In this document: in pieces, positions 3,350 to 59,943 of the stretch | Position numbering within the stretch: position 1 is the stretch's first letter | How the letters are laid out: each line of letters opens with the position of its first letter | DNA from: a virus | Length of the DNA stretch: 64,000 bases | Virus record (IMG/VR): IMGVR_UViG_3300042402_004628 | Coordinates: 6,831-70,830 of that record | Strand: one strand, 5' to 3' | Made by a program: the position numbers and the translations under genes | Notes under the pieces: model-generated | Told to the model about the DNA's origin: nothing | Databases searched by the model: none | What the model saw: the letters and a program-made list of their open reading frames with translations, nothing else

Positions 3350-4525
3350 TTAAATGTAATTAATAATCTTTTTAAATCTATTAATCGCCTCGTTAAGTTT
3401 CTCATCTTCTTCGTAAACTTTACCTTCAGCACCAGCTCTCATTTTCATAAAAGAACCCTCTTCTTTAACTTCTTCCTGACCACCCTCTTCCATTGGCTTA
3501 TCTTCACCTTCAGCAAAAGTACCGTCTTCTCTTACAGCGCCCGATTCAATATCATCCATACTTGGTACAGCGTATTTGTTAGTCTCTTGTTCTTCGTAAT
3601 CTTTTATCATAGCTTCAATCTCATCAACACCATCTTGAGCGTTTTTGGTGAAACCTGTTAGTCTGCTATAAGCATTACTCAACCACTGTTTAACTTTTCC
3701 GAACATTTCTTCAACACCCTCAAAAACTTTCGAACCATCAATCTTTAATTGGCCTTTAACCTTTGAGGCTACTTTAGAGTTTTCTAAAATTTGTTCAAGA
3801 ACTTTTCTAGTGTTCTCGTTAACTTTTGTTAACGCAGTCTCAAACGCATCTTTATATGATGTTGTTAATTTTTCAGATTCCTGGATTATTTCAACCAACA
3901 TCTCATCTATTGAAATTTTTAGTTTTTCGGCACCTTGGGTCTGACCTTTAAATGCATCCATAACCTCTGGAACCAAAGCGCTTTTTTGTGTTTCCAAATC
4001 AGCTATTGATTCTTTATAAGTTTTTAACGCCTCATCTAATTGAGTTTGAATTGTTTTTAATTCAGCTATTTTTTGGTTAATTGTATTTTCCATATTTTCA
4101 TTTATATTTTTTTTATCGTCATTGGTTTTAACACCAATCTTGGTGGTTTTACCCCAAACTGATGTTCTTATTTTACCCTGTTTGTTTTTTAATGTCACCT
4201 CAACTTTTCCACTCGGCGTTTTAGCCCCACTTGAAACTGAAACTATTTCTTCACCACTGGTAATTATATCACCCTTTTTTAAGTATTGGGCTTCTTTTCG
4301 ATCAACACCTTCCTGTAAACTTTTTTCATCTTTATCAATACCCATGGCAACTCTAAAATCATTATAATCGTAAGCCAAGTCGGTTGCATATCTGTAAACG
4401 GCTATATCAATTTTACCGTCTGGGTATTTACCCCAGCAATACACCCATTTCTCACCACCCATTTCAAATGGCGTTTCATCTCTGTATGGTTTGTAATATT
4501 CAACAACATCCATAGTACTTCTCAT
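3350..4525 (-). CDS. coiled-coil protein (possible scaffold or structural role)
   Basis: 391 aa; long heptad-like K/E-rich central region; no enzymatic motif. Confidence 0.5.
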   Translation of the reverse strand: MRSTMDVVEYYKPYRDETPFEMGGEKWVYCWGKYPDGKIDIAVYRYATDLAYDYNDFRVAMGIDKDEKSLQEGVDRKEAQYLKKGDIITSGEEIVSVSSGAKTPSGKVEVTLKNKQGKIRTSVWGKTTKIGVKTNDDKKNINENMENTINQKIAELKTIQTQLDEALKTYKESIADLETQKSALVPEVMDAFKGQTQGAEKLKISIDEMLVEIIQESEKLTTSYKDAFETALTKVNENTRKVLEQILENSKVASKVKGQLKIDGSKVFEGVEEMFGKVKQWLSNAYSRLTGFTKNAQDGVDEIEAMIKDYEEQETNKYAVPSMDDIESGAVREDGTFAEGEDKPMEEGGQEEVKEEGSFMKMRAGAEGKVYEEDEKLNEAINRFKKIINYI

Positions 4526-5002
4526 AATGTGATATTTTAATGATAAATAGTTTGCTTTTAATTAAAGTTTCGTATATTTACATATAAATAAACCTTACCA
4601 CTATGACGTATTTTTTTTATTCAAAAAATGACAAAAAAAGAGAACCGATTAAAACTTTAAATAATATTGGTTCAAGGCTAGCTGCGGCAAAATATTTTTC
4701 AGAGTTAAAAAAATTATCTCTTAAAGAGTTTTTGAAAGTTTTTTCTATTTCCAGGTAAAATGGGTTTTAATAAAAGGCATATAGATTTTGAAAGGATAAA
4801 AAGTCATTACAAGCAAGATGGTATTGAATCTTTAAAACTTTTATTCTCTCCTAAAGTTGATGCTTATATTTTTTCGGATATGATTTCTCACAAAATTTAT
4901 GAAATGTTTGAGAATAAAGAATATAGAAAAATATCGTGCCTTATCAGAATTGATTAAAAATCTTTTACTAAACGGTGATATATTTATTCCAAAAATAAAT
5001 AA

Positions 5003-5239
5003 ATGCACGGAAAAACCATAAAACAACTTTTAGCATTAAAAGAAGAACTCAATTCAATTTTAGAAACTCGTAGTGAGAAATTATTAGAATCAACCAAATC
5101 ATCTTATCTTCAAGAAGAATTACAAAGAAACATTGTCGATTACATCTCAGAAACAATTGACCAGATCGATATGATTATGGACAACATCGAAGGTGGTGAA
5201 TATGATGAGAACGATAATGAAGAGTTAGATGATTATTAA
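5003..5239 (+). CDS. small acidic protein
   Basis: 78 aa, D/E-rich C-terminus; terminator hairpin at 5285-5314. Confidence 0.45.
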   Translation: MHGKTIKQLLALKEELNSILETRSEKLLESTKSSYLQEELQRNIVDYISETIDQIDMIMDNIEGGEYDENDNEELDDY

Positions 5240-5284
5240 GATATTCCACCTTAGAGTGGTATTTTAGGATCGTTCATGGTTATG

Positions 5285-5314
5285 GACAAACTAAGGTCGG
5301 AATTCGCTACTCCG
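5285..5314 (+). terminator. intrinsic terminator
   Basis: GGTCGGAATTCGCTACTCCGACC + T6. Confidence 0.6.
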
Positions 5315-5359
5315 ACCTTTTTTATTTGCGCTGGATATTTATCTAAGTAACACATTTCA

Positions 5360-5977
5360 ATGAATCATCATATCGAAGACGAATTAAAACAAAAGTACCC
5401 AGACATCAGGTTTGAGTTATACCCAAATGAAAAGCACAAAAGGATATATCTCACTGGATTTATGGTTCCACCTAACATGCGTGGAACTGGTATTGGTACT
5501 TCTTTTATGAACGATTTAACAAGTCTTGCTGATCAACACGGTTATAAATTAACATTAACACCATCAAGCAGTTATGGTGGAAATGTGAACAGATTGAAAG
5601 ATTTCTACCAGAGATTTGGTTTTGTTTTTAATAAAGGTGATAATCGTGATTTCACACACAAGGAAGATATGTACAGGGATCCTAAGATTAATGAAGAGGA
5701 TTCGTCAAGCACATCGAGCACATCAAGTGGTTCAAGTGGTGGGACATCAGCCTCAAATAGTCCAGTACCAGATAGAGTTAAAAAAGGAAAAGCAAATCCA
5801 ATATCAAATACTGGTAAATACGAATTTGGTACAACCAGAGGAAAAGCAAATCCAATATCAAATACTGGTGCTTATGACTTTGGAACAAATCGTGGCCCAG
5901 CAAACCCAATATCAGAAAATAAAAATAATCGCCTGGATGAGGCGATTATTAATATGAAAAAATTGATTAATTTTTAA
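5360..5977 (+). CDS. GNAT-like N-acetyltransferase domain protein with three C-terminal tandem peptide repeats
   Basis: GNAT motif A-like 'MRGTGIGTSFM'; three ~18-aa repeats 'KANPISNTG.Y.FGT.RG' encoded by a 54-nt period at 5786-5920. Confidence 0.5.
   Translation: MNHHIEDELKQKYPDIRFELYPNEKHKRIYLTGFMVPPNMRGTGIGTSFMNDLTSLADQHGYKLTLTPSSSYGGNVNRLKDFYQRFGFVFNKGDNRDFTHKEDMYRDPKINEEDSSSTSSTSSGSSGGTSASNSPVPDRVKKGKANPISNTGKYEFGTTRGKANPISNTGAYDFGTNRGPANPISENKNNRLDEAIINMKKLINF
5786..5920 (+). repeat. three tandem 54-nt coding repeats inside the GNAT-like gene
   Basis: GGAAAAGCAAATCCAATATCAAATACTGGT repeated at 5786 and 5840; diverged third copy at 5894. Confidence 0.8.
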
Positions 5978-5978
5978 T

Positions 5979-7073
5979 TTAAGACCATTTGTTTAACATT
6001 TGGTAATTGTGAACTTCGTTCCATTTATTTGCGTCATAATTACCCCCTTTCCAATATTGGAATGAACCTATTCTTATATCACCCCCAGCTGTTAAGCCCA
6101 ATCTGAAAATATTATCAAATATCAGTTCAGTTGTTCCAACTTGTTGTACATAATTTTCATTACTATCATCAGCAATAAATAGTTGACCAGCATCGTTTCT
6201 ACCAAAAATAAGGGTTATCCAAGTATTAACTTGTGCACTCATTGATACGGTATCAGCACCCATAGTAAATTGGTATACGTTTGTAGCAATATCATATCTA
6301 AGTCTCGTAATCCCCCCATCAGCATAAATTATTGCTGGTGAATTACTGGCCTGCGGTGTGAATCTGAGCCTCAACGCAAACATAAAAGACTCACCAGATG
6401 AAGTATTAAGGGGTGCTATATATGAAGCCGCATTGGATGAATCTAAATCTATGTATAAATTTGCCGCATTAAATCTTCTATTATAAGTTGAATTATCGCC
6501 CGCGGTTTGTATTGATGTGGAGATATTTCCAGCGACATTTTTTGTAAACCATCTTTCTATTACACCATCAGTTGCTTGAACCAAATCGTAACATTTTGTT
6601 AAATTAGTCTCAAGAATGTCGCAATTAAGATTACCGAAATCAATATTTAACATTAAATTAGGGGTGTCAGCGTATTTGTATTTTGATAAATCAGCCAAAA
6701 AATGATTTAAATTTTCATTTTCAATAACGTATCTTTTGGCAACATCCACGTCACTATAATACGTGCCATCAATTTTTATTGAATGCAAACTATTAATTAT
6801 GTGTACAATTTCCGCATTGGTTTTACCAGTGACGTGATATGTTGGAATCGTGGGCTCACCGCCAACACCTTCTACATTTCCTCTTGATACGATATAATAT
6901 TTTTCGCCACCAAAATTACCCGCAGGATAACCTGGTCTCCAAGTAAGACCCGTTGAATTTCCGTCTTGAAAATTAAACCCTTCATTAATGTGGCCATAGC
7001 AATATTTACCAATTCTATGATATTGATCAATCGTTGGTGCGGTACCGTATTGTATAGTTACTGGAACTGACAT
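5979..7073 (-). CDS. hypothetical protein (possible virion or fibre protein)
   Basis: 364 aa, G/N/T/S-rich beta-type composition; divergent from the 7137 gene. Confidence 0.45.
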   Translation of the reverse strand: MSVPVTIQYGTAPTIDQYHRIGKYCYGHINEGFNFQDGNSTGLTWRPGYPAGNFGGEKYYIVSRGNVEGVGGEPTIPTYHVTGKTNAEIVHIINSLHSIKIDGTYYSDVDVAKRYVIENENLNHFLADLSKYKYADTPNLMLNIDFGNLNCDILETNLTKCYDLVQATDGVIERWFTKNVAGNISTSIQTAGDNSTYNRRFNAANLYIDLDSSNAASYIAPLNTSSGESFMFALRLRFTPQASNSPAIIYADGGITRLRYDIATNVYQFTMGADTVSMSAQVNTWITLIFGRNDAGQLFIADDSNENYVQQVGTTELIFDNIFRLGLTAGGDIRIGSFQYWKGGNYDANKWNEVHNYQMLNKWS

Positions 7074-7136
7074 AATTTAATATTTTACAATAAATAGTAT
7101 TAAAGTTTAAAATAACTCGAGATATTTATATTATAT

Positions 7137-7850
7137 ATGAATTTAAACGAGCAGATATTAAGAATGAAAACCATGATCGGTTTATCCGAGGTTACCATTC
7201 CACAATCAATTAAAAAATCGGTTGGTGATGTTTTGTTTGGTTCAAATCCAATAATTGCAAAAATTCAAAACAAACCAATTGAAAAGAATACCCCATACGA
7301 GGATAACCTGGTTGACAAAATAAAGGATTGGACATTTCAATCAACAGAAAAATCCGAGATGGGCGTTGTATCAACAATATCCGATTTAATTAAACTAAAA
7401 AAATATTTTCCAGAGGTTCTCAACCCACCGTATGGTGAAAAAGTTTACAGAGGAACATCGGTTAAATTACCAGAGCTATCCAAATTCATAAAAGAAAACC
7501 CAGAACATGATGTTTTGGATAACGGTGCGGTTAAATTTAAAACACCCTACCAGTATACCCCAAAAAGAGAAGTTAGTAGTTGGAGTGCATCCTTGTTCTA
7601 CGCATCATCATTTCAGGGCAAATCATTCGAGAGTGCTGTGAATGTCCCAGTTATTTTTGAAACAACTGTCGATGACACATTCATTATGAATCCAAAAGTT
7701 ATGAACATCATATTTAAATCAACGGGCGGTGTTCACCAGGATTTTATAAGGGACGAGGACGAGATTATGAAGTACAACCCGAGTGGTACTTACCATCTAA
7801 TTTTGTCAGAAGACGAATACGAAATATTCGCACCAAATGCCGAGGTCTAA
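7137..7850 (+). CDS. hypothetical protein; member of the shared N-terminal leader family
   Basis: N-terminus 'MNLNEQILRMKTMIGLSE' matches leaders of the 9075-9692, 10065-11639 and 12454-13137 genes. Confidence 0.6.
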   Translation: MNLNEQILRMKTMIGLSEVTIPQSIKKSVGDVLFGSNPIIAKIQNKPIEKNTPYEDNLVDKIKDWTFQSTEKSEMGVVSTISDLIKLKKYFPEVLNPPYGEKVYRGTSVKLPELSKFIKENPEHDVLDNGAVKFKTPYQYTPKREVSSWSASLFYASSFQGKSFESAVNVPVIFETTVDDTFIMNPKVMNIIFKSTGGVHQDFIRDEDEIMKYNPSGTYHLILSEDEYEIFAPNAEV

Positions 7851-7937
7851 AACCGCCGAAGGCGGTTGCGAAAAAATTTTTCTTTTAAATGAATTTTTCT
7901 TATTTTTGTGATATATATGTAAAATAATCAGAATATA

Positions 7938-8120
7938 ATGTCGATGACCAACGAAGAAATAGCAGAAGAAATCTACCACCAAGCGTTTGATCTCGGATTT
8001 ATCGATTTACTTCGTGAAAAGGTTGGTTATATTTACAAAACAACGCATGTGAAAGATCACAGTGATGTTGTGCAAAAAGCATATAATTTATTGGTTACAG
8101 AAGGTTTGATACAACTATGA
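7938..8120 (+). CDS. small hypothetical protein
   Basis: 60 aa ORF followed by hairpin+T-run at 8167-8197. Confidence 0.45.
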   Translation: MSMTNEEIAEEIYHQAFDLGFIDLLREKVGYIYKTTHVKDHSDVVQKAYNLLVTEGLIQL

Positions 8121-8166
8121 GATTCAGAAGAAAATACAATAACAATAATAATAAAATAGTAATTGG

Positions 8167-8197
8167 AAATCCTGTCATTTGACAGGATTTTTTTTTG
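8167..8197 (+). terminator. intrinsic terminator
   Basis: AATCCTGTCATTTGACAGGATT + T9. Confidence 0.65.
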
Positions 8198-9040
8198 CGC
8201 CAAAAATTAAACAAAAAAAAACAAATGAAAAACACAGAAACTTACAATGAACTCGTGCAGAAGATGCGCAAATTCTTTCTTGAAAGAGGATTCAAGGAAG
8301 TGCCAACACAATCAAGATTATCAATTCTCGCGGCTTGTGAGAACCCACACTCGGTTAAAACGTTCGAGTATGGTGGTTTGATCTGGCCGTTGCCACAGAC
8401 TGGACAGATGTGGCTTGAGTATGAGTTGTTAAAGAATCCAGAATGGAATGGCGTATTTTGCGTATCAACATCGTACAGAGAAGAAAAGAACCCAATCCCA
8501 GGAAGGCATGAGCTTATCTTCCCAATGTTTGAGTTTGAGTCAAAGGGAACCATGGAGGATTTAATCAAAATGGAAGGCGACCTTTTGGCTTATCTTGGAT
8601 TTGGTGATGAGATGGTTCAAGTTAAATACGATGATGTGTGTGAGGAATACGGTGGGGTACCAATTCTTGAGGATGAGCATGAATCCAGAATGTGGAATGA
8701 AAAGGGTAATGTTGTTTCATTACAACACTTCCCAATCAGAACAAATCCATTCTGGAACATGAAACACAATAACGATGGGATTTTCAACAAGGTTGATGTG
8801 ATTCTTTACGGACAGGAAACAATTGGATCCGCCGAGAGAAGCTGCGATGTTGAGAAGATGAGAGAAATGTTTTATGCTATTGAGAACGGTGCGTATTGCG
8901 CCAAGTTGTTCGAGTTATTCGGAAAAGAAAGGGTTGAGGCTGAGCTTGAGGAATTCTTGAAGCACAATTTCTTCCCAAGATATGGTGGTGGAATCGGGAT
9001 GACCAGAATGGCCAGAGCGTATGAGTTATTAAAGAAATAA
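8195..9040 (+). CDS. class II aminoacyl-tRNA synthetase catalytic-core-like / asparagine synthetase A (AsnA)-like protein
   Basis: motif-2-like 'STSYREEKNPIPGRHELIFPMFEFES' and motif-3-like 'GGGIGMTRMARAYELL' (compare AsnA 'GGGIGQSRL'); 281 aa with no anticodon-binding domain. Confidence 0.55.
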   Translation: MRQKLNKKKQMKNTETYNELVQKMRKFFLERGFKEVPTQSRLSILAACENPHSVKTFEYGGLIWPLPQTGQMWLEYELLKNPEWNGVFCVSTSYREEKNPIPGRHELIFPMFEFESKGTMEDLIKMEGDLLAYLGFGDEMVQVKYDDVCEEYGGVPILEDEHESRMWNEKGNVVSLQHFPIRTNPFWNMKHNNDGIFNKVDVILYGQETIGSAERSCDVEKMREMFYAIENGAYCAKLFELFGKERVEAELEEFLKHNFFPRYGGGIGMTRMARAYELLKK

Positions 9041-9070
9041 AAAAAGGGGCGAAAGCCCCTTTTTCTTTTT
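9041..9070. terminator. bidirectional terminator between convergent genes
   Basis: A-run GGGGCGAAAGCCCC T-run. Confidence 0.65.
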
Positions 9071-9074
9071 ATCT

Positions 9075-9692
9075 TTAATCTTCTCCGCCCCAATCTTTAT
9101 AATCACCAAATCTTTCGTTGTCTTCATAACCAGCGTTGTACGCTTCGATTTCTTCTGGTGTTAAATCGGTGATTCTCTCACCTTTGTAAGTTCCTTCTGG
9201 ATACTTATGTGGGCTCTTGGGTCTTCTGTAATATGAATCGGCGTGACCGCGATCATATGGTGATCCGTGCGAATCATCGTATTTCTCACTTCTACCCTCC
9301 TGAAATATTTCAGTTCTTGGTTCATCGTAATGATCCAACTTACCTATTGGGTAACGTTCGCCCGTCTCAGCGTTGTATTTAATGATTATCTTACCATCAT
9401 CACTATCACCTATAAAATAATGTACATTATCATCAGCTAAACTATAATATAATGGTCTGTCATAATCATCAAACTCTCTTTGAACAACTTTTTCACCACT
9501 TGCGGATTCGATCGCGGCTTTTTCGAAATCGAAATCACTTTCCATTTCCTCGCCACCTCTTTCGGAATTATAGTTAAAAATATCATCGGTGTATGCATTT
9601 GGATTATCCACCTTTGATAGATCAATTTCTTCATTAAGACCCATTATTTTGCGGAGTCTCGCAATTTCTTCATTTAATGTATTCTTTTTCAT
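9075..9692 (-). CDS. acidic hypothetical protein; shared N-terminal leader family (start moved to second ATG)
   Basis: 'MKKNTLNEEIARLRKIMGLNEE' leader; D/E/Y-rich body; ORF track start 9749 is an upstream extension. Confidence 0.55.
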   Translation of the reverse strand: MKKNTLNEEIARLRKIMGLNEEIDLSKVDNPNAYTDDIFNYNSERGGEEMESDFDFEKAAIESASGEKVVQREFDDYDRPLYYSLADDNVHYFIGDSDDGKIIIKYNAETGERYPIGKLDHYDEPRTEIFQEGRSEKYDDSHGSPYDRGHADSYYRRPKSPHKYPEGTYKGERITDLTPEEIEAYNAGYEDNERFGDYKDWGGED

Positions 9693-9741
9693 AGAAAAAA
9701 ACAATTTATTGATAAATAGTTTGTCAAATCCAAAAATATTT

Positions 9742-10056
9742 ATGAACATGGTAAAACTTTTTGAGAGAATACATATCCCATTGTGGATCGCAAAGGATAT
9801 GTTCTGGATGTTGGGTCAGGGCGAACTCTCATTGGCTTTCGCGATACCAACCATAATATTATCAACAATACTCATAACAGTAAAACAGGGGTCGGAAAGG
9901 TGGCTCGAGATGATGATGGCCTTTTGGTTATCAGCCAATACCTTATGGATGTCCCACGAGCTTTTTCATACGGACACAAAAGAAATTGCATTAACCTGTT
10001 TTTTATTTGGCATTTTAACAATTCCAATCTATTTATTAAAGATAAAAGAAGAATAA
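9742..10056 (+). CDS. small multi-pass membrane protein
   Basis: In-frame ATG at 9742 inside track ORF 9589-10056; three hydrophobic segments. Confidence 0.45.
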   Translation: MNMVKLFERIHIPLWIAKDMFWMLGQGELSLAFAIPTIILSTILITVKQGSERWLEMMMAFWLSANTLWMSHELFHTDTKEIALTCFLFGILTIPIYLLKIKEE

Positions 10057-10064
10057 AACTAGTT

Positions 10065-11639
10065 ATGAAACTAACTGAGGAAATAAAGAAAATGCAATCC
10101 ATGATGGGCATTATGTCCGAGGATGTGAAAATATACGCAAACGGTGTTGGATCTGAGGTGTTTAATGATAACGAACATTACGGAAAGGTTGATGATATTA
10201 ATTTAAATGACACCATAGCAAATGAACCGTTTAAGGATATGGAATACATGGATAAAAGTTCCAATGTCGATGATATGGTTCAAGCCTTGAAATCTGGTGA
10301 AGAGCTGCCACCAATACTTGTTATTCAACACCCCTTCGACCAATCAAAATATTTGGTTGTCGATGGAAACCATAGAAGATACGCATATGACCGCGCAGGT
10401 GCTGATAAGATTCCAGCCGTTGTGATTAAACCAGAGGATGTTTTGTTAATGCAATCCGATTGGGGTGATCCAGAGGAAAAGGCGATCAGATTATCTGATG
10501 TTATATCCGATCCAGAGTTGTTTGCTCGAGAAAACACAAGAATGTTAATTGACAAGTATTTTGTTAAACCAGACGGATCACATGAGTTCGAATTGAATGA
10601 AAATTTATATGAGGAAAAGAAAAAAGCCGATCGTTGTTTAAGAATAGCGAGAAGAAAATACAGCAAACCATCAGCATATAGATCTGGTGCAATCGTTCAA
10701 TGCAGAAGAGGAAAGATATGGAGAGGTTTGAAGGAAGAGGAGATCCAAATGATTGACAACGCACCAGAGGAAATGCAAGGTTTGATCGCCAAGGCTCACG
10801 ATGCTTTGACGTGGAAGAGGGGTCGAAAAGAATATGCTCCAGATTTTAATGAACTTCAAACATGGGTGGATGCTTATTTGGAGACTGACGGTGGAATGCA
10901 TGAAGCGAAGAAAACCGATTTCTCAAAGGAGAAAAAGAGCGGACTTCACGGATGGTTTTCAAGAAGAGGTGGTGGCGGAAGCAAAGGATGGGTTGATTGC
11001 AACACATGCAGAAAAGTTGACGGAAAGAAAAAATGCAAGGCTTGTGGAAGACAAAAGGGTGAGGTGAGAGCCAAGTACCCATCATGCAGACCAACACCAG
11101 CATCATGCGGAACACCAGGAAAGGGAAAATCTTGGGGCAAGACAAAGGAAGAGGGTTACAGCTTGAATGAAGCCAAGGAGATGAAGAGAGTTGCTTTGCT
11201 TTTCATTGTGATTGACAACGAAGCGTTGTTGTTCAAGAGAAGCGAAGACGAAACAACAAATCCAGGAAAATACGGAATGCTTGGTGGTGGAATTGAAAAG
11301 AATGAAACGCCAGAGGAAGCAATCGTGAGAGAGATCAGAGAAGAAGCTGGTGTTGAGTTGAAATCATTCAAACCACTGAAGAAATATATTTACAACAACG
11401 AGTGTGAATTAAACGTATTCTACACAAACGAATTTCCAATTGATGATGTTGTGCTTGACAAGAACGAACACACATCGTACAAATATTTCACGATGGAACA
11501 ATTGATAGATATGGATCCAAAGGATATGATTGGTTCCAACAAAGAAATCGCGAAGGATTACAACGAGATCGCAAACAAGAAAAAGAAATTGGAAGAAGAG
11601 ATAGAGAGAATAAAAGCTACGATGAAGATTCTTATTTAA
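10065..11639 (+). CDS. ParB/Srx-like nuclease domain + Cys-rich linker + Nudix hydrolase fusion; shared N-terminal leader family
   Basis: 'LVVDGNHRRYA' ParB-type motif; Nudix box 'GGGIEKNETPEEAIVREIREEAGV'; Cys cluster CNTC..CKAC..C..C; N-terminus 'MKLTEEIKKMQSMMGIMSE'; the track ORF start 9783 overlaps the membrane gene. Confidence 0.7.
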   Translation: MKLTEEIKKMQSMMGIMSEDVKIYANGVGSEVFNDNEHYGKVDDINLNDTIANEPFKDMEYMDKSSNVDDMVQALKSGEELPPILVIQHPFDQSKYLVVDGNHRRYAYDRAGADKIPAVVIKPEDVLLMQSDWGDPEEKAIRLSDVISDPELFARENTRMLIDKYFVKPDGSHEFELNENLYEEKKKADRCLRIARRKYSKPSAYRSGAIVQCRRGKIWRGLKEEEIQMIDNAPEEMQGLIAKAHDALTWKRGRKEYAPDFNELQTWVDAYLETDGGMHEAKKTDFSKEKKSGLHGWFSRRGGGGSKGWVDCNTCRKVDGKKKCKACGRQKGEVRAKYPSCRPTPASCGTPGKGKSWGKTKEEGYSLNEAKEMKRVALLFIVIDNEALLFKRSEDETTNPGKYGMLGGGIEKNETPEEAIVREIREEAGVELKSFKPLKKYIYNNECELNVFYTNEFPIDDVVLDKNEHTSYKYFTMEQLIDMDPKDMIGSNKEIAKDYNEIANKKKKLEEEIERIKATMKILI

Positions 11640-11734
11640 CCTTCGCAAAGACAAACGCTACCTTCACATTCTGGGCAGCAAGTTCCTGGTTCAACCACGG
11701 GTAAAAACATTAAAGACAATTTTTATTATAGAAA

Positions 11735-11765
11735 AAAAAGGATCGATTAGTTCGATCCATTTTCA
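11735..11765. terminator. bidirectional terminator
   Basis: A8-GGATCGATTAGTTCGATCC-T4. Confidence 0.55.
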
Positions 11766-12298
11766 TTTATATTCTTTTCAACATTCTGTTTCATCCCGCG
11801 AACCATTTTAAGAAGACTGGAGTTATCGGTCTTAACGATGGTTGTCACCTGTGGTTCAGGTTCACGTGGCATTATCATGGCTGATACCTCACCGTCCCCA
11901 GAACCAGAACCGCCAGTTTCCATGCGAAGAGTTCTTTCGAAACGAACTGGTGAGCTGGTTGAGGTTGAAACAACTTTATTATGTGTCTTTTGAGCTTCAC
12001 TCTCCATATTGGTCAACATCTCAAGAATTTCCTTCTCACGAGATATGAATCTGTCCGTGCAAACGGTTTGATTGCTGATAACAATATCATTAAGTTCATT
12101 CACCCTGTCACTAAGGCTCTTTATCATAACCTTTTGGTTTTCCACCTTGTGTAATAATTCCTCATTATCTTGGGTAAGACCTTCGATAAGCTTAGGGCCA
12201 ATTGAGATAATCACAATGGACAAAAGAACAATCCCAAGAGCAGCAAGACGCTGTTTCATGGAGATCTTTGAGATGATTTCTGAAATATATTTAAACAT
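11747..12298 (-). CDS. membrane-anchored coiled-coil protein
   Basis: N-terminal TM 'LAALGIVLLSIVIISIG' then coiled coil; palindrome 32-56 nt upstream. Confidence 0.5.
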   Translation of the reverse strand: MFKYISEIISKISMKQRLAALGIVLLSIVIISIGPKLIEGLTQDNEELLHKVENQKVMIKSLSDRVNELNDIVISNQTVCTDRFISREKEILEMLTNMESEAQKTHNKVVSTSTSSPVRFERTLRMETGGSGSGDGEVSAMIMPREPEPQVTTIVKTDNSSLLKMVRGMKQNVEKNINENGSN

Positions 12299-12329
12299 GT
12301 CTCTATTTGTTTAAATATAAATATTCGTG

Positions 12330-12354
12330 TTTACAGTAAATTGTTTACTGTAAA
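12330..12354. promoter_or_regulatory. perfect 11-bp inverted repeat with a 3-bp spacer (operator-like palindrome)
   Basis: TTTACAGTAAA-TTG-TTTACTGTAAA, 32-56 nt upstream of the 12298 start codon. Confidence 0.45.
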
Positions 12355-12453
12355 CTAAATTAAAAGCAACGGGGGTAAAAATTACCATAATGTGTCACCA
12401 TCCCCAGGAGGGTGTTCGGAATAAAGGGTTTGTAAAAATTGTGGGGTTATGAA

Positions 12454-13137
12454 TTATATTCCAACGGTTGGTGAGTCCATGTTCTCACTTAAACCATAAT
12501 GTTTCTCAACCAAAGTTTCAAAGTAATTTAAAAGTCCTTCTTTACCAATACCACTTTCTTTGGCTTTCGCAATGAAGTCATCAGCACTAGCACCAATTCC
12601 ACCTTGAATCCAGTCCACATCAGCAGCTGTGATTATTTTTTCATTGATTGGTTCCTCACTCATTCTATTTAAAAAACTATTTAATTTTCCATTACTATAA
12701 GTTAAACCAAGTTCTTTGGTTAACTTTTCAAGTACTCTAACCACTTGAGTTTTATATGGGTCTGAATAAGCTCTAACAAAAGATCCAGAGCCACGATTAA
12801 ACATGAAACCGTATATTCTTTGATCTATTTGACTAATCACATATTTTTTCTTCTCTTCTGGTTCTGTTGGTATTGACCCAGTATATTTTTGGTCTGACTC
12901 AACAAAATCGGTTACCAGTTTATTAAAAGCTTCCACAAATTCTTTTGCTTTTGTTGGATTTTCTTGCCAAGAATCATTACGAGCACTATTATTAATTGAT
13001 AAACCTTTAATTATTGGTTCCATACGTCCAAAGCCATCATCAATTATTTTAACGGAATCAACGAACTCGTTTAGATTCTCATTAAGGCCCATCATCTGGC
13101 GTATTCTTAAAACTTCTTCATTTAAGGTATTATTCAT
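12454..13137 (-). CDS. hypothetical protein; shared N-terminal leader family
   Basis: 'MNNTLNEEVLRIRQMMGLNE' leader. Confidence 0.6.
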   Translation of the reverse strand: MNNTLNEEVLRIRQMMGLNENLNEFVDSVKIIDDGFGRMEPIIKGLSINNSARNDSWQENPTKAKEFVEAFNKLVTDFVESDQKYTGSIPTEPEEKKKYVISQIDQRIYGFMFNRGSGSFVRAYSDPYKTQVVRVLEKLTKELGLTYSNGKLNSFLNRMSEEPINEKIITAADVDWIQGGIGASADDFIAKAKESGIGKEGLLNYFETLVEKHYGLSENMDSPTVGI

Positions 13138-15024: not shown

Positions 15025-15258
15025 TTACCAAACCAAAACCGCTGGGTCTTCCGTTTGGGCGATTTGTTCCGCCTTTGTTTTTAACTCGGTCATTTGAGCG
15101 ATTAAAACCTCATAGGTCGGTCTTTGATTTGTTTTGTAACCCAAAATTCGTTTGGCACAATCCCTCGCTGAAATTCGGCTCATTTTCATTCCTGTTTTTT
15201 TCTCGAACTCTAAGCCGCGAAGGCATACTACGATTTGAAAAAGTGATGTTGTTGTCAT
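15025..15258 (-). CDS. hypothetical small protein
   Basis: First ATG after the cassette promoter; the track's extra 'MNYQNKQT' is a promoter/leader read-through artefact; terminator downstream. Confidence 0.55.
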   Translation of the reverse strand: MTTTSLFQIVVCLRGLEFEKKTGMKMSRISARDCAKRILGYKTNQRPTYEVLIAQMTELKTKAEQIAQTEDPAVLVW

Positions 15259-15279
15259 TGTTTGTTTGTTTTGATAGTT

Positions 15280-15311
15280 CAAAGATAAACGAAATAAATT
15301 TAACTTGCAAA
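15280..15311 (-). promoter_or_regulatory. cassette promoter for CDS start 15258
   Basis: TTTGCAAGTTAAATTTATTTCGTTTATCTTTG. Confidence 0.65.
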
Positions 15312-15320
15312 TTTTAACAT

Positions 15321-15347
15321 AAAAAAAAGGGGAATTTCTTCCCCTTT
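15321..15347 (-). terminator. cassette terminator
   Basis: GGGGAATTTCTTCCCC + T8 on the minus strand. Confidence 0.65.
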
Positions 15348-15365: not shown

Positions 15366-15506
15366 TTAAAAATTTCTTCCCGAAATTTTATATTTGTCTT
15401 CTTTTGGATTACCCCAAAACCAATTGTTAAGTTTACGAACTATAACTATTGATAGCCAAATGGTAAGAAAAAATATGGGCAATCCGATAATAAAGAAATC
15501 TTTCAT
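15366..15506 (-). CDS. small membrane protein (46 aa)
   Basis: MKDFFIIGLPIFFLTIWLSIVIV... after an inverted-core cassette promoter. Confidence 0.45.
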   Translation of the reverse strand: MKDFFIIGLPIFFLTIWLSIVIVRKLNNWFWGNPKEDKYKISGRNF

Positions 15507-15528
15507 AGGTTTGTTTGTTTTGTTGATA

Positions 15529-15560
15529 TAAAGATAAGTTAAATTTATTTCATTTGCAAG
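15529..15560 (-). promoter_or_regulatory. cassette promoter, inverted-core variant, for CDS start 15506
   Basis: Flanks conserved; central 17-mer present as its reverse complement. Confidence 0.5.
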
Positions 15561-15615
15561 TTTTAACATAAAAAAAGGGGAATTTCTTCCCCTTTGTTTG
15601 CATTAGCACTTTTGT

Positions 15616-15681
15616 TTACATTAGCACAGCCATGATTAACAAAGCACCGCAAAAAAGCGTTAAGACGAATAGAATACTCAT
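15616..15681 (-). CDS. candidate 21-aa hydrophobic micro-peptide MSILFVLTLFCGALLIMAVLM
   Basis: Only ORF between cassette promoter 15704-15735 and the next terminator. Confidence 0.25.
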   Translation of the reverse strand: MSILFVLTLFCGALLIMAVLM

Positions 15682-15703
15682 TGTTTATTTTGATTTGTTG
15701 ATA

Positions 15704-15735
15704 CAAAGATAAGTTAAATTTATTTCATTTGCAAG
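15704..15735 (-). promoter_or_regulatory. cassette promoter, inverted-core variant (micro-ORF or sRNA unit)
   Basis: As above. Confidence 0.5.
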
Positions 15736-15798
15736 TTTTAACATAAAAAAAAGGGAACTTTTTTTGTTCCCTCTCTTTTGATCCACAACCCTATTCTT

Positions 15799-16350: not shown

Positions 16351-16374
16351 TTGTTTTGTTTGATTTGATAACAC

Positions 16375-16405
16375 AAAGATATGTTAAATTTATTTCATTT
16401 GCAAA
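16375..16405 (-). promoter_or_regulatory. cassette promoter, inverted-core variant, for CDS start 16350
   Basis: As above. Confidence 0.5.
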
Positions 16406-55091: not shown

Positions 55092-56543
55092 TTAAATTTT
55101 AATCTTTATGTTTTCGATAATTAAATCACCAGTGTGAATACCGTTATGTTTATAAATTTCAACATGGTATCTGTTAGATGAGTTGACCTCAAATTCAAAT
55201 TGCATTGTTGGTCTACCGTCAGCGTTGAGTGTTCTACAACAACCCTTTTCACAAGACTCACCAGGCATTTTATGATCGGCTCCGAAGAAAGACATATAAC
55301 CCGCGAAGCTCTCAACCATATTCGGGTGTGCTGTTGTTAATTTATTTCGATTAACGTAAACCTCATAGACACCTTTAGGTATCTTCGTGAATGAAACGGT
55401 TAATACTAATTTAACTCTATTTGGCGCACCTAGCTGGCCACTTGTTGGCGTAACCTGTGTGACAGCATCTGTGATTTGACCATTAATTGGTATGCTGAAA
55501 TTATTGCTATGTAAAACATTGTTGTATGCTCTAGCCATCATCGGTTGATCAGCTTTTTCATATACCTCAACATCATCATAATCATAATCAAGTTTGTATA
55601 TTATCTTTATCACATCTTCCATTGTATAGGTAACTTTCTTACCATTCTCATCGAAGAAAACATAAGACCAGTCAGCTGATTTTAACATCTCCAATGTAAC
55701 TTTCTCCCCATTCGGAGAATTAGTCCATTGCTGCCATAGTCTATCAATGTTTGAGTGATGTGTCCAGAAAACTGGATCAAACCCAGCTGTCGGAACCCAA
55801 CCCATCAACCCTGTCTCACTAATTTTACCAGTGATTGGGTTGTTGAACAACTTACCAGTTTGTACATTACCAGCGCCGATGTAATCGTGCATCGCACCAT
55901 GTGGGGCATTGTTAATCTGCGAGTTAAACATTTCGTATGAGGTGTAACTCATTAATTTATCTGTCTCCAAAGCTCTTTGGATTTCACCTGCAATAGGATA
56001 ACCATAGTTCAAGCTATCAAATCTACAACGTTCATATAGGGATGATTTCGGATCTCTGAATTTTTCTTGTAAAAATTTGTCGTAGTCAAAATTATTTGTG
56101 TAGCCCCAATAAGGTAATGCGAAATCTTTATATCCAGACAATTTTCTAACTATCTTTTCTAAATGGTGAATGTATAATCTATGCCAAACCAAGAAATGAA
56201 TTTTTTCTTTACCACTTGGTGTATGTGTACAATTATCCCAAGCTTCTTTTAAATCGGCTGGGGTCTTATAGCTTGGGCACAGTGGGTTATATAAGATTGT
56301 GTCGGGAACCCAATGAATTGCACCTTGATAATACCAACTCAATGGGTTATCACAAGGCATATTACGCATAATTTTAAAGGCTTTGTCCATGGCTTCAACG
56401 TCCATTTGTGCCTCTGGTGTGTGAATTTCTTTTCGGAGATATCGTTTTCCAACAACATCTCCAACGCTTTCGGTTCTGTCTTTACATGATATTAGCCATA
56501 ATAGGCCAAACATCAAAATGAATAGTATTAATATTTTTTTCAT
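55092..56543 (-). CDS. tyrosinase / polyphenol oxidase (type-3 copper), predicted lipoprotein
   Basis: CuA 'HFLVWHRLYIHHLE', CuB 'HGAMHDYIG...DPVFWTHHSNIDRLWQQW'; N-terminal MKKILILFILMFGLLWLISC lipobox. Confidence 0.8.
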   Translation of the reverse strand: MKKILILFILMFGLLWLISCKDRTESVGDVVGKRYLRKEIHTPEAQMDVEAMDKAFKIMRNMPCDNPLSWYYQGAIHWVPDTILYNPLCPSYKTPADLKEAWDNCTHTPSGKEKIHFLVWHRLYIHHLEKIVRKLSGYKDFALPYWGYTNNFDYDKFLQEKFRDPKSSLYERCRFDSLNYGYPIAGEIQRALETDKLMSYTSYEMFNSQINNAPHGAMHDYIGAGNVQTGKLFNNPITGKISETGLMGWVPTAGFDPVFWTHHSNIDRLWQQWTNSPNGEKVTLEMLKSADWSYVFFDENGKKVTYTMEDVIKIIYKLDYDYDDVEVYEKADQPMMARAYNNVLHSNNFSIPINGQITDAVTQVTPTSGQLGAPNRVKLVLTVSFTKIPKGVYEVYVNRNKLTTAHPNMVESFAGYMSFFGADHKMPGESCEKGCCRTLNADGRPTMQFEFEVNSSNRYHVEIYKHNGIHTGDLIIENIKIKI

Positions 56544-57397: not shown

Positions 57398-57754
57398 TTA
57401 AGATTTTTTGTAATAGATCGTATCAGGTAAAGACCCAAACACGAACTTGGTTACGTCACATAACCACATTTTAATATCAAATGGTATACCCATGTAAGAC
57501 TCAACCTTATATGTGGCACCAGAACCATTCCCCTCATCATACAACCAACCATCCGAAATTTTTTTGAGCTCCTCAGCACCCTCAAATGGTTTATCGGACA
57601 ATGCTATCCAAATATACCACTCACCTTCACATAGCAAATCAAGCCAGGTGTCAGCACCAAGAACCATTTGTAGATCGGCTTTAGATCCTTCCCATTCTGG
57701 AAGATCAACAAACCAACCATTAAATTCTTTATCAAATCTTAATCTTTGTTTCAT
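57398..57754 (-). CDS. hypothetical protein
   Basis: ORF track. Confidence 0.45.
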   Translation of the reverse strand: MKQRLRFDKEFNGWFVDLPEWEGSKADLQMVLGADTWLDLLCEGEWYIWIALSDKPFEGAEELKKISDGWLYDEGNGSGATYKVESYMGIPFDIKMWLCDVTKFVFGSLPDTIYYKKS

Positions 57755-58137
57755 AAACTACATTTAAACATATAGTTAAATATCTCACAATTTGAATTTA
57801 GTTTAGATAAATCTGGAAAGGTCACATCACCTATATAGTTATTATCTATATGTGATATGTGTAACTCGGTGAACATGTGTGCATATTTTTCATATGTTTT
57901 TTTGCCACCAATGCACCAATCAATAACTTCGATATCTGGATTCCAAAGTCCCCTGGTATCGATTACAACTTCACGACCCTTCAATGGTGGTAACTCTAGT
58001 GATGTGTTGTAGCCAACGAGTAATCTACCACCCATGGTTTTTTCTTTGAAATGTTTGAAATCTTCGGAACTACGCCATAGCATTTTATTACCGATTCCTA
58101 TGAACCCGAGATTATTTACAGCAATTATAGCTTTCAT
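57751..58137 (-). CDS. folA: dihydrofolate reductase
   Basis: 'IIAVNNLGFIGIGNKMLW...DFKHFKEKTMGGRLLVGYNTSLELPPLKGREVVI...IGGKKTYE' matches the DHFR fold motifs. Confidence 0.8.
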   Translation of the reverse strand: MKAIIAVNNLGFIGIGNKMLWRSSEDFKHFKEKTMGGRLLVGYNTSLELPPLKGREVVIDTRGLWNPDIEVIDWCIGGKKTYEKYAHMFTELHISHIDNNYIGDVTFPDLSKLNSNCEIFNYMFKCSL

Positions 58138-58704: not shown

Positions 58705-58921
58705 CTTCTTTTTTAATATCCTCTCGAGTTAATTCTTTTTCAGCTTGGTGCATGAAGATAATCTCTTTTGTTTGTTCATCAACTGTGCAAGCGGCAATTG
58801 GTTTATCAACTCGGTAATGATATTCTTCTCCTAGCATACCAACTTCTCCGTTGACAACTTCAAAGGCATCAAACTCCTCTGGTAGGGTGTTGAGCCACGT
58901 TTTTAATTCTCCTAAATTCAT
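58691..58921 (-). CDS. hypothetical protein
   Basis: ORF track. Confidence 0.4.
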   Translation of the reverse strand: MNLGELKTWLNTLPEEFDAFEVVNGEVGMLGEEYHYRVDKPIAACTVDEQTKEIIFMHQAEKELTREDIKKEDGKD

Positions 58922-59943
58922 ATATCGTAAGGTGTTGTACTGAATGTTATCTTCTCGATACTCAAACAGTTTGTGTTTATTATTTTTTCGATAAACATAA
59001 TAAAATCAGAAACAATATCAAATGATTTTATTTGTTTGTTCAGGTATAGGTTGTAAACCCCAATTTCTTGAAGAACATCTGATTTATTGATTATTAAATC
59101 AGTCACACCGTTGATGTTAATTGCTTTGATCATATCGTCCAAGTCCAACCAATCAACTTGCCTCGGTCTACCAGTTGTTGCACCAAACTCATTACCAACT
59201 TCTCTTATCTTCACAAACAATGGGTCTGCACCTTCAAAGTTTTTGGCACCAACATATGTGCGATAAGCTTTTGCAACGCCGTACACTCTGTCAATTTTTT
59301 GTGCTGGTATTCCATTAAGGATGGCCCCACCAATTGTGCAATGTGATGATGTAACATATGGGTAATCACCCCAATCAATATCCAACTCAAAACCCTGAGC
59401 CCCTTCGCAAAGTATACTACAACCGTCTTGCCCATTAAATAATCCGTATGTATCAACAACCATGTCGGCTAACATAGGAACATCAACAGCTCTAAGACCT
59501 TTTCGATAATACTTATCTCGGTAAGCTGGGCCATTCCCAGTTTTAGTCGTACCGATTTTACTATCCAAACTATCTTCGTGTAGATGTTGCTCGGTGATGA
59601 TGTGAACACGTTTATCAATCAATAAGTTCTCACGAACTTTAAATCCAGCTAATTCGAGTTCATCAATTTCTTGAATAAGTTTGTCTGGGTTGACCACACA
59701 ACCAAGTCCAATAATTGATTTGATTCCATACAATACACCAACTGGTATGAAATGTGTTACATATTTTTCACCATTGTGATATATCGTGTGACCAGCATTA
59801 CCACCACCATTGTAGCGCATAACATAATCATACTCATCTGGCTTCTTAGCCAGAGCGTGGGCAACCTTGCCCTTTCCAGTGTCACCCGCTTGCAGGTCAA
59901 CAATTACATCAGCTTTGCGTATCATAGTGCGTGGTTTTCCCAA
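58918..59943 (-). CDS. purA: adenylosuccinate synthetase (short form)
   Basis: 'GDTGKGK', 'RYNGGGNAGHT', 'GTTKTGNGPAYRDK', 'EGAQGFELDIDWGDYPYVTSS', 'GNEFGATTGRPRQVDWLD' align to PurA motifs; the real start may be the internal MIRKADV. Confidence 0.85.
   Translation of the reverse strand: MGKPRTMIRKADVIVDLQAGDTGKGKVAHALAKKPDEYDYVMRYNGGGNAGHTIYHNGEKYVTHFIPVGVLYGIKSIIGLGCVVNPDKLIQEIDELELAGFKVRENLLIDKRVHIITEQHLHEDSLDSKIGTTKTGNGPAYRDKYYRKGLRAVDVPMLADMVVDTYGLFNGQDGCSILCEGAQGFELDIDWGDYPYVTSSHCTIGGAILNGIPAQKIDRVYGVAKAYRTYVGAKNFEGADPLFVKIREVGNEFGATTGRPRQVDWLDLDDMIKAININGVTDLIINKSDVLQEIGVYNLYLNKQIKSFDIVSDFIMFIEKIINTNCLSIEKITFSTTPYDI

Follow-up and report, generated by a model that had tools for sequence, protein, structure and literature searches.

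An in-frame ParB/sulfiredoxin-fold cassette in a Cys-rich Nudix gene of an uncultured large phage, and the combinatorial protein family around it

Polyvalent proteins combine unrelated enzymatic domains of the conflict type, between 2 and 15 of them, on one polypeptide; their domains are extensively shuffled, ParB/sulfiredoxin (Srx) domains recur among them and Nudix domains are peripheral (Iyer, Burroughs, Anand, de Souza and Aravind, 2017; PMC5512222). The DdrB-like ParB domains of P1-type phages, which possess an extra helix with a conserved Tyr and lie in a late-gene context beside virion genes, were proposed to be nucleoside triphosphate (NTP)-regulated DNases or NTP sensors of early infection (PMC5512222). 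Phage T4 offers a second point of comparison, with a ~10-aa capsid-targeting sequence (CTS) and with short N-terminal peptides that gp21 trims from IPI-III and Alt, IPI being injected (PMC9958956). Here we compare with these systems a gene at positions 10065-11639 (+) of a 64,000-nucleotide (nt) stretch of viral DNA (positions 6,831 to 70,830 of IMG/VR record IMGVR_UViG_3300042402_004628; hereafter the window), which encodes a ParB/Srx-fold domain and a Nudix hydrolase domain in one protein.

The gene is a single open reading frame (ORF) of 524 codons without a break, and its product is made up, from the N-terminus, of a 14-residue motif, the ParB/Srx domain, three modules termed A, H and B, the Nudix domain and a second copy of the motif. 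A first-pass annotation had described the region as an unusual fusion of a ParB/Srx-like nuclease domain, a Cys-rich module and a Nudix hydrolase, and all the strings it quoted are present: VVDGNHRRYA at aa 98-107, the Nudix box at aa 407-430 and the Cys cluster between the two. Both enzymatic domains are real, the Nudix domain by Pfam, AlphaFold2 (AF2) and Foldseek, the ParB/Srx domain by its fold. On a modest balance of probability, we read the gene product as an accessory enzyme of polyvalent type and modular build, encoded by a large phage not yet in culture. Such a protein would be assembled from independently mobile cassettes, namely the ParB/Srx domain, a basic Cys-rich A-H-B region and a MutT-like Nudix domain, with a 14-residue helix capping both ends, and its two enzymatic domains would have semi-independent activities on one polypeptide.

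An A-H-B-Nudix gene existed first, and the ParB half entered it recently as a cassette that keeps the frame. Beyond this half, the C-terminal two-thirds of the protein share 87% identity with the 366-aa P0002, which has the order A-H-B-Nudix and is encoded on two contigs, L006 and L007, that are syntenic with the window gene for gene. In blastn alignments, L006 1-6001 corresponds to window 4077-10057 and L006 6080-7096 to window 10609-11634, both at ~87.6% identity; between these blocks the window has 551 nt (10058..10608 (+), leader plus ParB/Srx, aa 1-181), for which L006 and L007 carry a leader-only segment of 78 nt. The left breakpoint falls directly after the stop codon of an upstream membrane-protein ORF, and the right breakpoint lies in an A-rich linker encoding E-K-K-K, before module A. 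Stand-alone homologs of the N-terminal 181 residues (172-257 aa, 45-51% identity) start with the 14-aa motif, keep LPPIxVIxHP, DGNHRR and YFVKPDG invariant, and end exactly where the window protein enters module A. Since the Nudix half is complete and conserved without a ParB domain, the fusion is additive rather than mechanistically obligatory; to speak of one enzyme being 'coupled' to the other, as had been done, overstates the case, because the syntenic relative has the gene without the ParB domain.

The fused gene is maintained as such. Identical copies of the 524-aa protein are found on six NCBI contigs, the longest of which, JBFDKG010002685.1, measures ~299 kb, and an IMG/VR contig from another metagenome carries the full-length gene at 99% identity; the same ORF with its in-frame junction thus recurs in all of them, and the possibility raised earlier that resequencing might split the region into two genes did not materialize. 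The IMG/VR copy differs by 43 nt but only five amino acids, with 38 silent-site versus five amino-acid changes spread across both halves, a sign that purifying selection acts strongly on the ORF as a whole. Translation starts at the ATG at 10065. The public gene call begins at a GTG at 9783 and predicts 618 aa, over-extending the gene across 9783-10064; we reject it because in the syntenic L006 a stop codon interrupts the added stretch of the frame and because the call overlaps a conserved 104-aa ORF. This ORF (9742..10056 (+)), co-directional with the target, encodes a small membrane protein with, by inspection, about three hydrophobic segments; 102 of its 104 residues are kept in L006, in which its stop codon and the start codon of the unfused Nudix gene follow each other without a gap (TAAATG), and in the window its stop lies 8 nt before the target ATG. 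The N-termini of homologs start at the Met equivalent to ATG 10065.

The ParB/Srx-fold domain spans aa 20-181 (10122..10607 (+)), with a core at aa 40-130 that contains LPPILVIQHP and VVDGNHRRYA, and a family-specific C-terminal extension that ends in YFVKPDG. AF2 models were made for the two halves of the protein separately; a MAFFT hybrid full-length alignment misplaced the stand-alone ParB proteins, lowering their identity from ~48% to ~19%. The model has the alpha+beta fold of the ParB/Srx superfamily, and its closest structures are KorB, sulfiredoxin, SerK, SbnI and PadC, together with one nuclease-annotated ParB-N. D100-G101-N102-H103-R104-R105 is invariant in 15 homologs, and DGNHRR aligns with the GERR of Noc and ParB, so that the conserved active-site Arg (G-x-x-R / DG-x-HR) is in place. 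The catalytic Cys of sulfiredoxin sits in a GCHR motif; at its position the window domain has Asn102, invariant in the subfamily. This residue, together with N- and C-terminal extensions (GxGS, NEPxKD, YFVKPDG), sets the domain apart from the sulfiredoxin/SerK/SbnI/KorB-N/PadC branch. Alignments with ParB, Noc and KorB stop near aa 130, with no box III, helix-turn-helix (HTH) or dimerization region detected beyond. The canonical ParB set (box III ENLQR, HTH, C-terminal dimerization, ParA and parS) was thus not found, parS not having been searched for, and no ParA was identified in the subset of window ORFs scanned; the remainder of the protein is made up of unrelated modules. In being phage-encoded and lacking an identified ParA partner the domain resembles the DdrB-like domains, to which it is likened by description.

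We therefore place the domain, as far as sequence and model allow, in the superfamily at the level of fold, as neither a canonical partition ParB nor a sulfiredoxin. Among its structural neighbours it most resembles NTP-binding switches and phosphotransferases, and the label 'ParB-type' nuclease was too specific, given these nearest structures and the absence of any match past ~aa 130. Our best guess is NTP binding or hydrolysis, possibly gating nicking, by analogy with what was proposed for phage ParB-like domains.

The Nudix domain occupies aa 372-490 (11178..11534 (+)), and its box, G407-V430 (GGGIEKNETPEEAIVREIREEAGV, 11283-11354), satisfies all fixed positions of GX5EX7REUXEEXGU. Profile searches, which the first-pass annotation had proposed as a check of both domains, bore it out for the Nudix domain (PF00293, 61.8 bits versus a cut-off of 21.1) and not for ParB_N (PF02195, 23.7 versus 26.3 bits), though there the fold matches. 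The domain also matches phrog_1198 (1.2e-17) and, in PADLOC, a generic Nudix entry. Its AF2 model (predicted local distance difference test score, pLDDT, ~90) is an alpha/beta/alpha sandwich for which Foldseek returned MutT, NudC, DR0079, RppH and NudI at E-values of 3e-10 to 5e-9, with a probability of 1.00 for MutT, NudC and RppH. Sequence identity to MutT, NudC, RppH and NudI is 17-25%, equally close to all. NCBIfam equivalog models all scored far below their cut-offs (MutT 35.6/97.9, NudC 25.8/158 and ADPRase 19/248 bits). The ADPRase, NADH and ApnA subfamilies of Nudix enzymes are recognized by residues downstream of the box, i.e. a Pro at +15/16, the SQPWPFPxS motif, or a Tyr at +16-18; on direct reading, none of the three occurs in the sequence that follows the box here, ELKSFKPLKKYIYNNECELN. 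The window domain thus appears to be a superfamily member outside every characterized subfamily (MutT, NudC/NADH, ADPRase, ApnA hydrolase, RppH).

From the intact box and the model we predict a catalytically competent, MutT-like pyrophosphohydrolase. Because the domain is equally close to MutT, NudC, RppH and NudI, reaches no equivalog threshold and lacks the subfamily motifs, NAD or ADP-ribose (ADPR) would be no likelier a substrate than a (d)NTP-like molecule or the 5′ end of an RNA. With MutT, NudI, RppH and DR0079 it shares the minimal alpha/beta/alpha fold of ~130 aa and the canonical box. Phage T4 NudE is a single-domain MutT-like Nudix hydrolase; in contrast to such enzymes, the window domain lies within a multi-module protein and is followed by a long alpha-helix (aa 491-523, 11535..11636 (+); model residues 309-341, pLDDT 66-87) that closes in the second copy of the 14-aa motif.

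Between the two enzymatic domains lies the Cys-rich region that had been noted at the outset; its cluster is at aa 312-348, and Cys191 and Cys213 add to it. Module A (ADRCLRIARRKYSKPSAYRSGAIVQCRRGKIW, aa 188-219, 10626..10721 (+)) contains these two Cys residues. Module H (LIAKAHDALTWKRGRKEYAPDFNELQTWVDAYL, aa 240-272, 10782..10880 (+)), recognized by alignment, is helical, its predicted helices having a pLDDT of 45-61; elsewhere it occurs directly before Nudix domains without A or B, e.g. in the order motif-H-Nudix-motif of P0072. Module B (GLHGWFSRRGG...GWVDCNTCR...CKACGR...KYPSCRPTPASC...WGKTK, aa 293-361, 10941..11147 (+)) stands out by invariant columns in an alignment of 117 representatives. 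Within the arrangement C312-x2-C315-x8-C324-x2-C327-x13-C341-x6-C348, Cys 312, 327, 341 and 348 are invariant in the family, and 315 and 324 are specific to a subclade. The surrounding stretch is very basic (21 Lys plus Arg versus six Asp plus Glu at aa 286-368), and modules A and B are near-invariant across relatives, more conserved than the Nudix domain itself. The only Pfam similarity in this region is to DUF5872 (PF19197), which matches aa 186-213 at 17.7 bits, below its threshold of 27.5; across the bracket family, 27 of 117 representatives match it at E ≤ 1e-3, and module A, or A plus B in stand-alone proteins, gives such weak matches. DUF5872 itself has no assigned function and is scarcely mentioned in the literature searched.

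The single gene belongs to a large combinatorial family. A search with the whole protein returned 1124 relatives, with up to ~8 modules per protein, and a crude architecture map of the best 120 of these contains ~48 architectures, among which the window's order occurs once. The modules combined include Nudix, two ADP-ribosyltransferase (ART)-like domains, GNAT, ParB-like and degenerate ParB-like domains, a P-loop kinase, a nucleotidyltransferase-like domain, Zn-ribbons and several unnamed ones; Pfam knows few of them. The fusion is indeed unusual: among the proteins retrieved, only the P0001 cluster, to which the window protein belongs, has this combination and order and covers the full query with both PF00293 and PF02195. 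ParB and Nudix domains are joined in other orders in P0066 (motif-A-ParB-Nudix, E 3e-17 to the window's ParB/Srx domain) and P0055 (motif-A-ParB-B-Nudix, E 5e-4), both from diverged ParB lineages. P0015-type proteins, considered as hidden ParB-A-H-B-Nudix relatives (99% coverage, 'DGRHR'), were rejected, since neither BLASTP nor Pfam relates them to the ParB domain.

An exhaustive search with the A-H-B segment yielded 776 cluster representatives at E ≤ 1e-3, and 160 at ≤ 1e-30. In all 64 cases in which both modules were detected, A preceded B, with A near the N-terminus, B near the C-terminus and an insert of variable length between them (median 150 aa, range 17-557); because of this constant order and variable insert, A and B read as a bipartite bracket around variable cargo. 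Pfam assignments among 117 A/B representatives comprised ART-PolyVal (11), GNAT (7), AAA_33 (4), DUF3990 (4) and ParB_N (2), and single cases of ArdC-N, NleE, PG_binding and cytidylyltransferase. ART-PolyVal, ArdC-N and ParB_N are signature domains of polyvalent proteins, and of these the window protein has only ParB. By these domain assignments the cargo of the family is of the conflict type (ART-PolyVal, GNAT, P-loop kinase, nucleotidyltransferase-like, ParB and ArdC-N). In the cultured Flavobacterium phage immuto the bracket makes up a protein of 156 aa by itself, whose gene lies among those for a primase, an exonuclease, NMNAT and a 5′-nucleotidase. Neither the A...B bracket nor the 14-aa motif corresponds to a Pfam family beyond the weak DUF5872 similarity, and a text search of PMC5512222 for such elements found nothing; the specific domain order is new, and the bracket and boundary motif appear to be undescribed.

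A pattern-limited scan of ~186,000 species genomes found one further relative, in a WOR-3 metagenome-assembled genome (CP070664.1, L009 7384-9684). There, small adjacent genes encode an A-B-Y protein, a Nudix domain on its own and proteins homologous to the N-terminal modules of P0087 and P0081; the locus is inside a 2.8-Mb 'chromosome' with masked N runs and may be a prophage or mis-binned viral DNA. A module of ~45 aa at the end of some family members (P0008 aa 871-916, …GKWYVVSKKGKTLGKHETE..ALAQLRAIE…) matches, at 56% identity, the C-terminal end of proteins annotated as portals in Vibrio phages CP-T1 and vB_VchM-138, and phrog_15528, annotated 'portal protein', holds an internal Nudix segment (3.4e-12).

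The 14-aa motif, with the consensus LNEEIxRhKxhMGh, had been called a 'shared leader'. In the window protein, its N-terminal copy (LTEEIKKMQSMMGI, aa 3-16, 10071..10112 (+), followed by MSE) scores 19.2-19.5 bits with a motif hidden Markov model (HMM), and its C-terminal copy (LEEEIERIKATMKI, aa 509-522, 11589-11630 (+), two residues before the stop) 13.5-13.8 bits. The HMM finds the motif in 68 of the best 120 proteins, as 27 N-terminal, 22 inter-module and 46 C-terminal copies. L1, E3, [RK]7 and [MI]12 are invariant in 63 distinct instances; [LIVMF]-x-E follows 35 of the 41 N-terminal or internal copies, and position 14 is the exact end of the protein in 18 of 22 distinct C-terminal copies. 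The motif is predicted to be helical (aa 2-13 for the N-terminal copy, at low pLDDT) and is rare in the wider bracket family (2/137). It is thus not simply a leader, as it also stands between modules and forms the last 14 residues of proteins including the window's own, and we regard it, from its distribution, as a clade-specific module-boundary element. With copies in internal and C-terminal positions too, the motif alone does not mark a protein as injected. A role as DNA recombination joint was considered and, as the crossover site of this cassette event, rejected: copies differ at synonymous sites and the breakpoints of the ParB cassette fall outside the motif, which points to selection on the peptide.

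Within the window, six copies score at least 10 bits, compared with none in 10 codon shuffles; all are at gene termini, four of them N-terminal, and all lie within 3.3-13.1 kb, with none in the other 50 kb. Besides the target, the tagged genes are 3350-4525 (-), 7137-7850 (+), 9075-9692 (-; 205 aa) and 12454-13137 (-), and a weak seventh copy closes the GNAT gene at 5360-5977 (+), whose GNAT module shares 65-71% identity with its counterpart in relatives that have GNAT fused to Nudix. Short repeats of the type 'RG-x-ANPI / GNPI-x-x-GSKWESG' form the C-terminal tail of this GNAT gene, and a similar tail is found behind 233-aa stand-alone ParB-like proteins (P0122, P0126, P0127 and P0131), i.e. 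as another small shuffled module.

All motif-tagged genes of the window thus map to an accessory island (3350..13137), delimited by the motif scan with its shuffled control and by indels. Three clean cassette indels distinguish close relatives here, at 9041/9075, 10058-10608 and 11639. Besides the ParB cassette of the window, these comprise a 75-aa gene that L006 carries as an insertion directly behind the target stop codon (11639). A 98.8% identical locus, L010 (JGI 3300059688), carries a 1.45-kb Metallophos plus family-2 glycosyltransferase cassette (L010 622-1993), inserted precisely at a bidirectional terminator (9041/9075) between the aminoacyl-tRNA synthetase (aaRS)-like gene and the 205-aa motif-tagged gene; the retrieved L010 locus ends before the Nudix position. 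Because cassette indels separate such close relatives, the target gene sits in a plastic, hypervariable accessory island.

Fold identities, the intact Nudix box, the H-R-R pocket motif, purifying selection, the insertion, the hypervariable island and the conflict-type cargo of the family thus carry the view of the gene as a polyvalent-type accessory enzyme. If this is correct, the Nudix domain would hydrolyse a nucleoside diphosphate linked to another moiety X, most likely a (d)NTP-like molecule or an RNA 5′ end or cap, while the ParB/Srx domain would bind or hydrolyse NTP and possibly gate phosphotransfer or the nicking of DNA. The bracket, basic and Cys-rich, probably metal-stabilized and perhaps nucleic acid-binding, may be a common scaffold or targeting element. 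The biological role of the protein would most likely be host takeover or counter-defence early in infection, exerted either from the cytoplasm after expression or by protein carried in the virion. Like polyvalent proteins, the window protein unites unrelated domains, ParB/Srx and Nudix plus three uncharacterized modules, within the range of 2-15, and its family is extensively shuffled; unlike them, it is much smaller (524 aa, two enzymes), contains no zincin-like processing peptidase and shows no linkage to a MuF, portal or other virion gene among the neighbours examined. We take it to work like a small polyvalent protein that falls short on these two points of context, peptidase and virion linkage. 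The earlier suggestion of an effector holds up to the extent that an accessory or effector function is plausible by association; a purpose-built DNA-targeted machine is not borne out.

Several points weigh against this view, the missing peptidase and virion linkage among them. In addition to the window domain itself, the stand-alone ParB homologs stay below the Pfam ParB_N threshold, at 17.3 and 15.0 bits. For A-H-B, neither phmmer nor a 117-sequence profile found a PDB relative, and the region could not be modelled (AF2 pLDDT 30-60; A < 50, B 30-40), so that its scaffold or targeting role is conjecture. The list of the best 120 proteins is skewed to Nudix proteins, since the query contained a Nudix domain. 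The activities of both domains are predicted from sequence, and the conflict role, which guilt by association and the plasticity of the island make plausible, is argued by analogy.

The alternative that survives best, which we nevertheless consider unlikely, is a housekeeping enzyme without any role in conflict: a MutT/NudI-like activity that sanitizes (d)NTPs or shapes their pool for the replication of a large genome, tethered to phage DNA or the replisome by the ParB/Srx domain and the bracket. The best sequence and NCBIfam similarities of the Nudix domain, far below cut-offs as they are, point to MutT and NudI, and public annotations name its relatives 8-oxo-dGTP diphosphatase. The phage has nucleotide metabolism of its own (DHFR, PurA-like and Nampt genes, and a dNMP kinase gene to the left), and the immuto A/B gene has a 5′-nucleotidase, NMNAT and primase beside it. 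However, strain-level gain and loss of cassettes in a hypervariable island is unusual for core replication genes, relatives join the same Nudix domain to ART, GNAT and other modifier domains, and no equivalog threshold is approached, MutT included.

Likewise on the unlikely side is a virion-packaged, injected effector, in which the 14-aa motif would be a capsid-targeting and/or processing tag, its N-terminal and internal copies cut after the following [LI]-x-E by a prohead protease. Tagged proteins would enter the prohead and leave it with the DNA, to act ahead of any expression of phage genes. The gp21 protease of T4 cuts at L/I-x-E sites, which the [LIVMF]-x-E behind most N-terminal and internal copies resembles. 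As with the T4 CTS (IPII/IPIII) and the peptides trimmed from IPI and Alt, a short peptide after the start is common to several non-essential proteins, here as four N-terminal copies in one phage and as tags on at least five clustered window genes, and hydrophobic-x-Glu follows it. Cuts after internal copies would yield the products of the stand-alone genes, X-motif and untagged Y. The family contains ART cargo, as T4 Alt is; ParB-bearing polyvalent proteins are head-packaged in P1 (PMC5512222); and, as two weak hints, portal-annotated proteins match the Nudix domain (internally, in phrog_15528) and, at their C-terminus, another module of the family. In contrast to the T4 CTS, the window motif is also internal and, in 46 of 95 copies, at the extreme C-terminus with no residues after it; it has no sequence similarity to the CTS. 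Neither the window nor the 10 kb to its left showed a gene for a structural, portal or scaffold protein or a protease, and the immuto A/B protein is encoded among replication and nucleotide-metabolism genes; the injection suggested earlier has no backing in these non-structural neighbours. More tentatively still, bracket and motif together might constitute a hitherto unrecognized cassette-effector system of marine large phages, in which standard boundary peptides make diverse enzymes (Nudix, ART, GNAT, ParB/Srx, P-loop kinase and nucleotidyltransferase) interchangeable, with the boundary helix tagging enzymes for capsid, processing or docking and for delivery with the DNA; if so, fused and unfused versions would give the same mature enzymes, and the target would be a freshly assembled, two-warhead injected effector.

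That the enzyme specifically destroys NAD- or ADPR-derived immune signals (ADPR, cyclic ADPR isomers, NAD-capped or ADP-ribosylated molecules), as the first-pass annotation had ventured, is improbable. NudC/NUDT12 structures are among the top fold matches, relatives join the Nudix domain to ART domains, NAD-centred conflicts are established and Nampt in the phage indicates that NAD metabolism matters. Yet NudC matches no better than MutT, RppH or NudI, the NudC equivalog and ADPR diphosphatase models stay far from their cut-offs, the diagnostic residues downstream of the box are absent, and the domain lacks the zinc-binding and N-terminal domains of NudC. Finally, an artefact, whether a chimeric pseudogene in decay or two genes that an error of sequencing or assembly has merged, for which only the unfused form in a close relative speaks, is already effectively refuted by the continuous ORF in the six NCBI contigs and an independent IMG/VR contig, the excess of silent-site changes over both halves, the intactness of every catalytic motif and a ParB/module A junction that is in frame and without an internal start.

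The neighbours of the target are hypothetical, GNAT, aaRS-like and UvrD genes. A bidirectional, intrinsic-terminator-like hairpin (11740..11758; 7-bp stem, T runs on both strands) separates the target from a convergent gene (11747-12298 (-)) and closes the unit; eight such sites were found versus 2.3 expected. A promoter scan showed no enrichment over shuffles, the 64-kb window contains no tRNA genes, no deposited phage is a close relative at the DNA level, and the neighbouring motif-tagged protein has no homologs in the phage database. The aaRS-like protein (tRNA-synt_2; 271-281 aa, 8195-9040 (+)) is a truncated class-II form of AsnA- or EpmA-like size and is kept in all syntenic relatives. 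Downstream, between small minus-strand genes, an intergenic element of ~86 nt is reiterated at 15254-15339, 15503-15588, 15678-15763 and 16351-16400, with an A/T-rich box followed by a GC-rich hairpin. These elements are probably repeated promoter/terminator cassettes, and it is possible that they are substrates for the cassette indels of this phage group.

At the far end of the window, a Nampt/NadV gene (nicotinamide phosphoribosyltransferase; 62621-63991 (-)) matches phrog_448 with an E-value of 9e-141. Phages use Nampt in the NAD-reconstitution pathway NARP2; a link of the Nudix gene to NARP was considered and dropped, as Nampt lies ~51 kb away and nothing ties the two together. A 340-aa adenylosuccinate-synthetase homolog (58918-59943 (-)) matches a PurZ-annotated PHROG, but a link to 2-aminoadenine was likewise discarded: its best phage matches look like ordinary PurA, and no MazG/HD partner is nearby. 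An SPFH/Band-7 protein of 619 aa (60433-62295 (-)) and a short DHFR homolog (57751-58137 (-)) adjoin this PurA-like gene, and a protein with tyrosinase central and polyphenol-oxidase middle domains (55092-56543 (-), Pfam 1.5e-26) is an unusual phage auxiliary gene.

Collectively, the single gene is less special than it first looked; the interest lies in how its family is designed and in the fusion event caught at this locus. The 776 clusters follow a repeated rule, a conserved bracket around swappable cargo, with the boundary peptide added in one clade. One in-frame cassette, through which a Nudix protein gains a ParB/Srx domain, sets two nearly identical genomes apart, and if our reading is right, the locus shows the domain shuffling of phage accessory enzymes in progress. 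It also contributes to Nudix biology a phage clade for which the current subfamily rules predict no substrate. The family would then offer a tractable natural system for the assembly of multi-activity effectors by phages and a set of candidate counter-defence enzymes (Nudix, ART, GNAT and kinase), and its short peptide might turn out to serve packaging or docking, as a tag of use in engineering.

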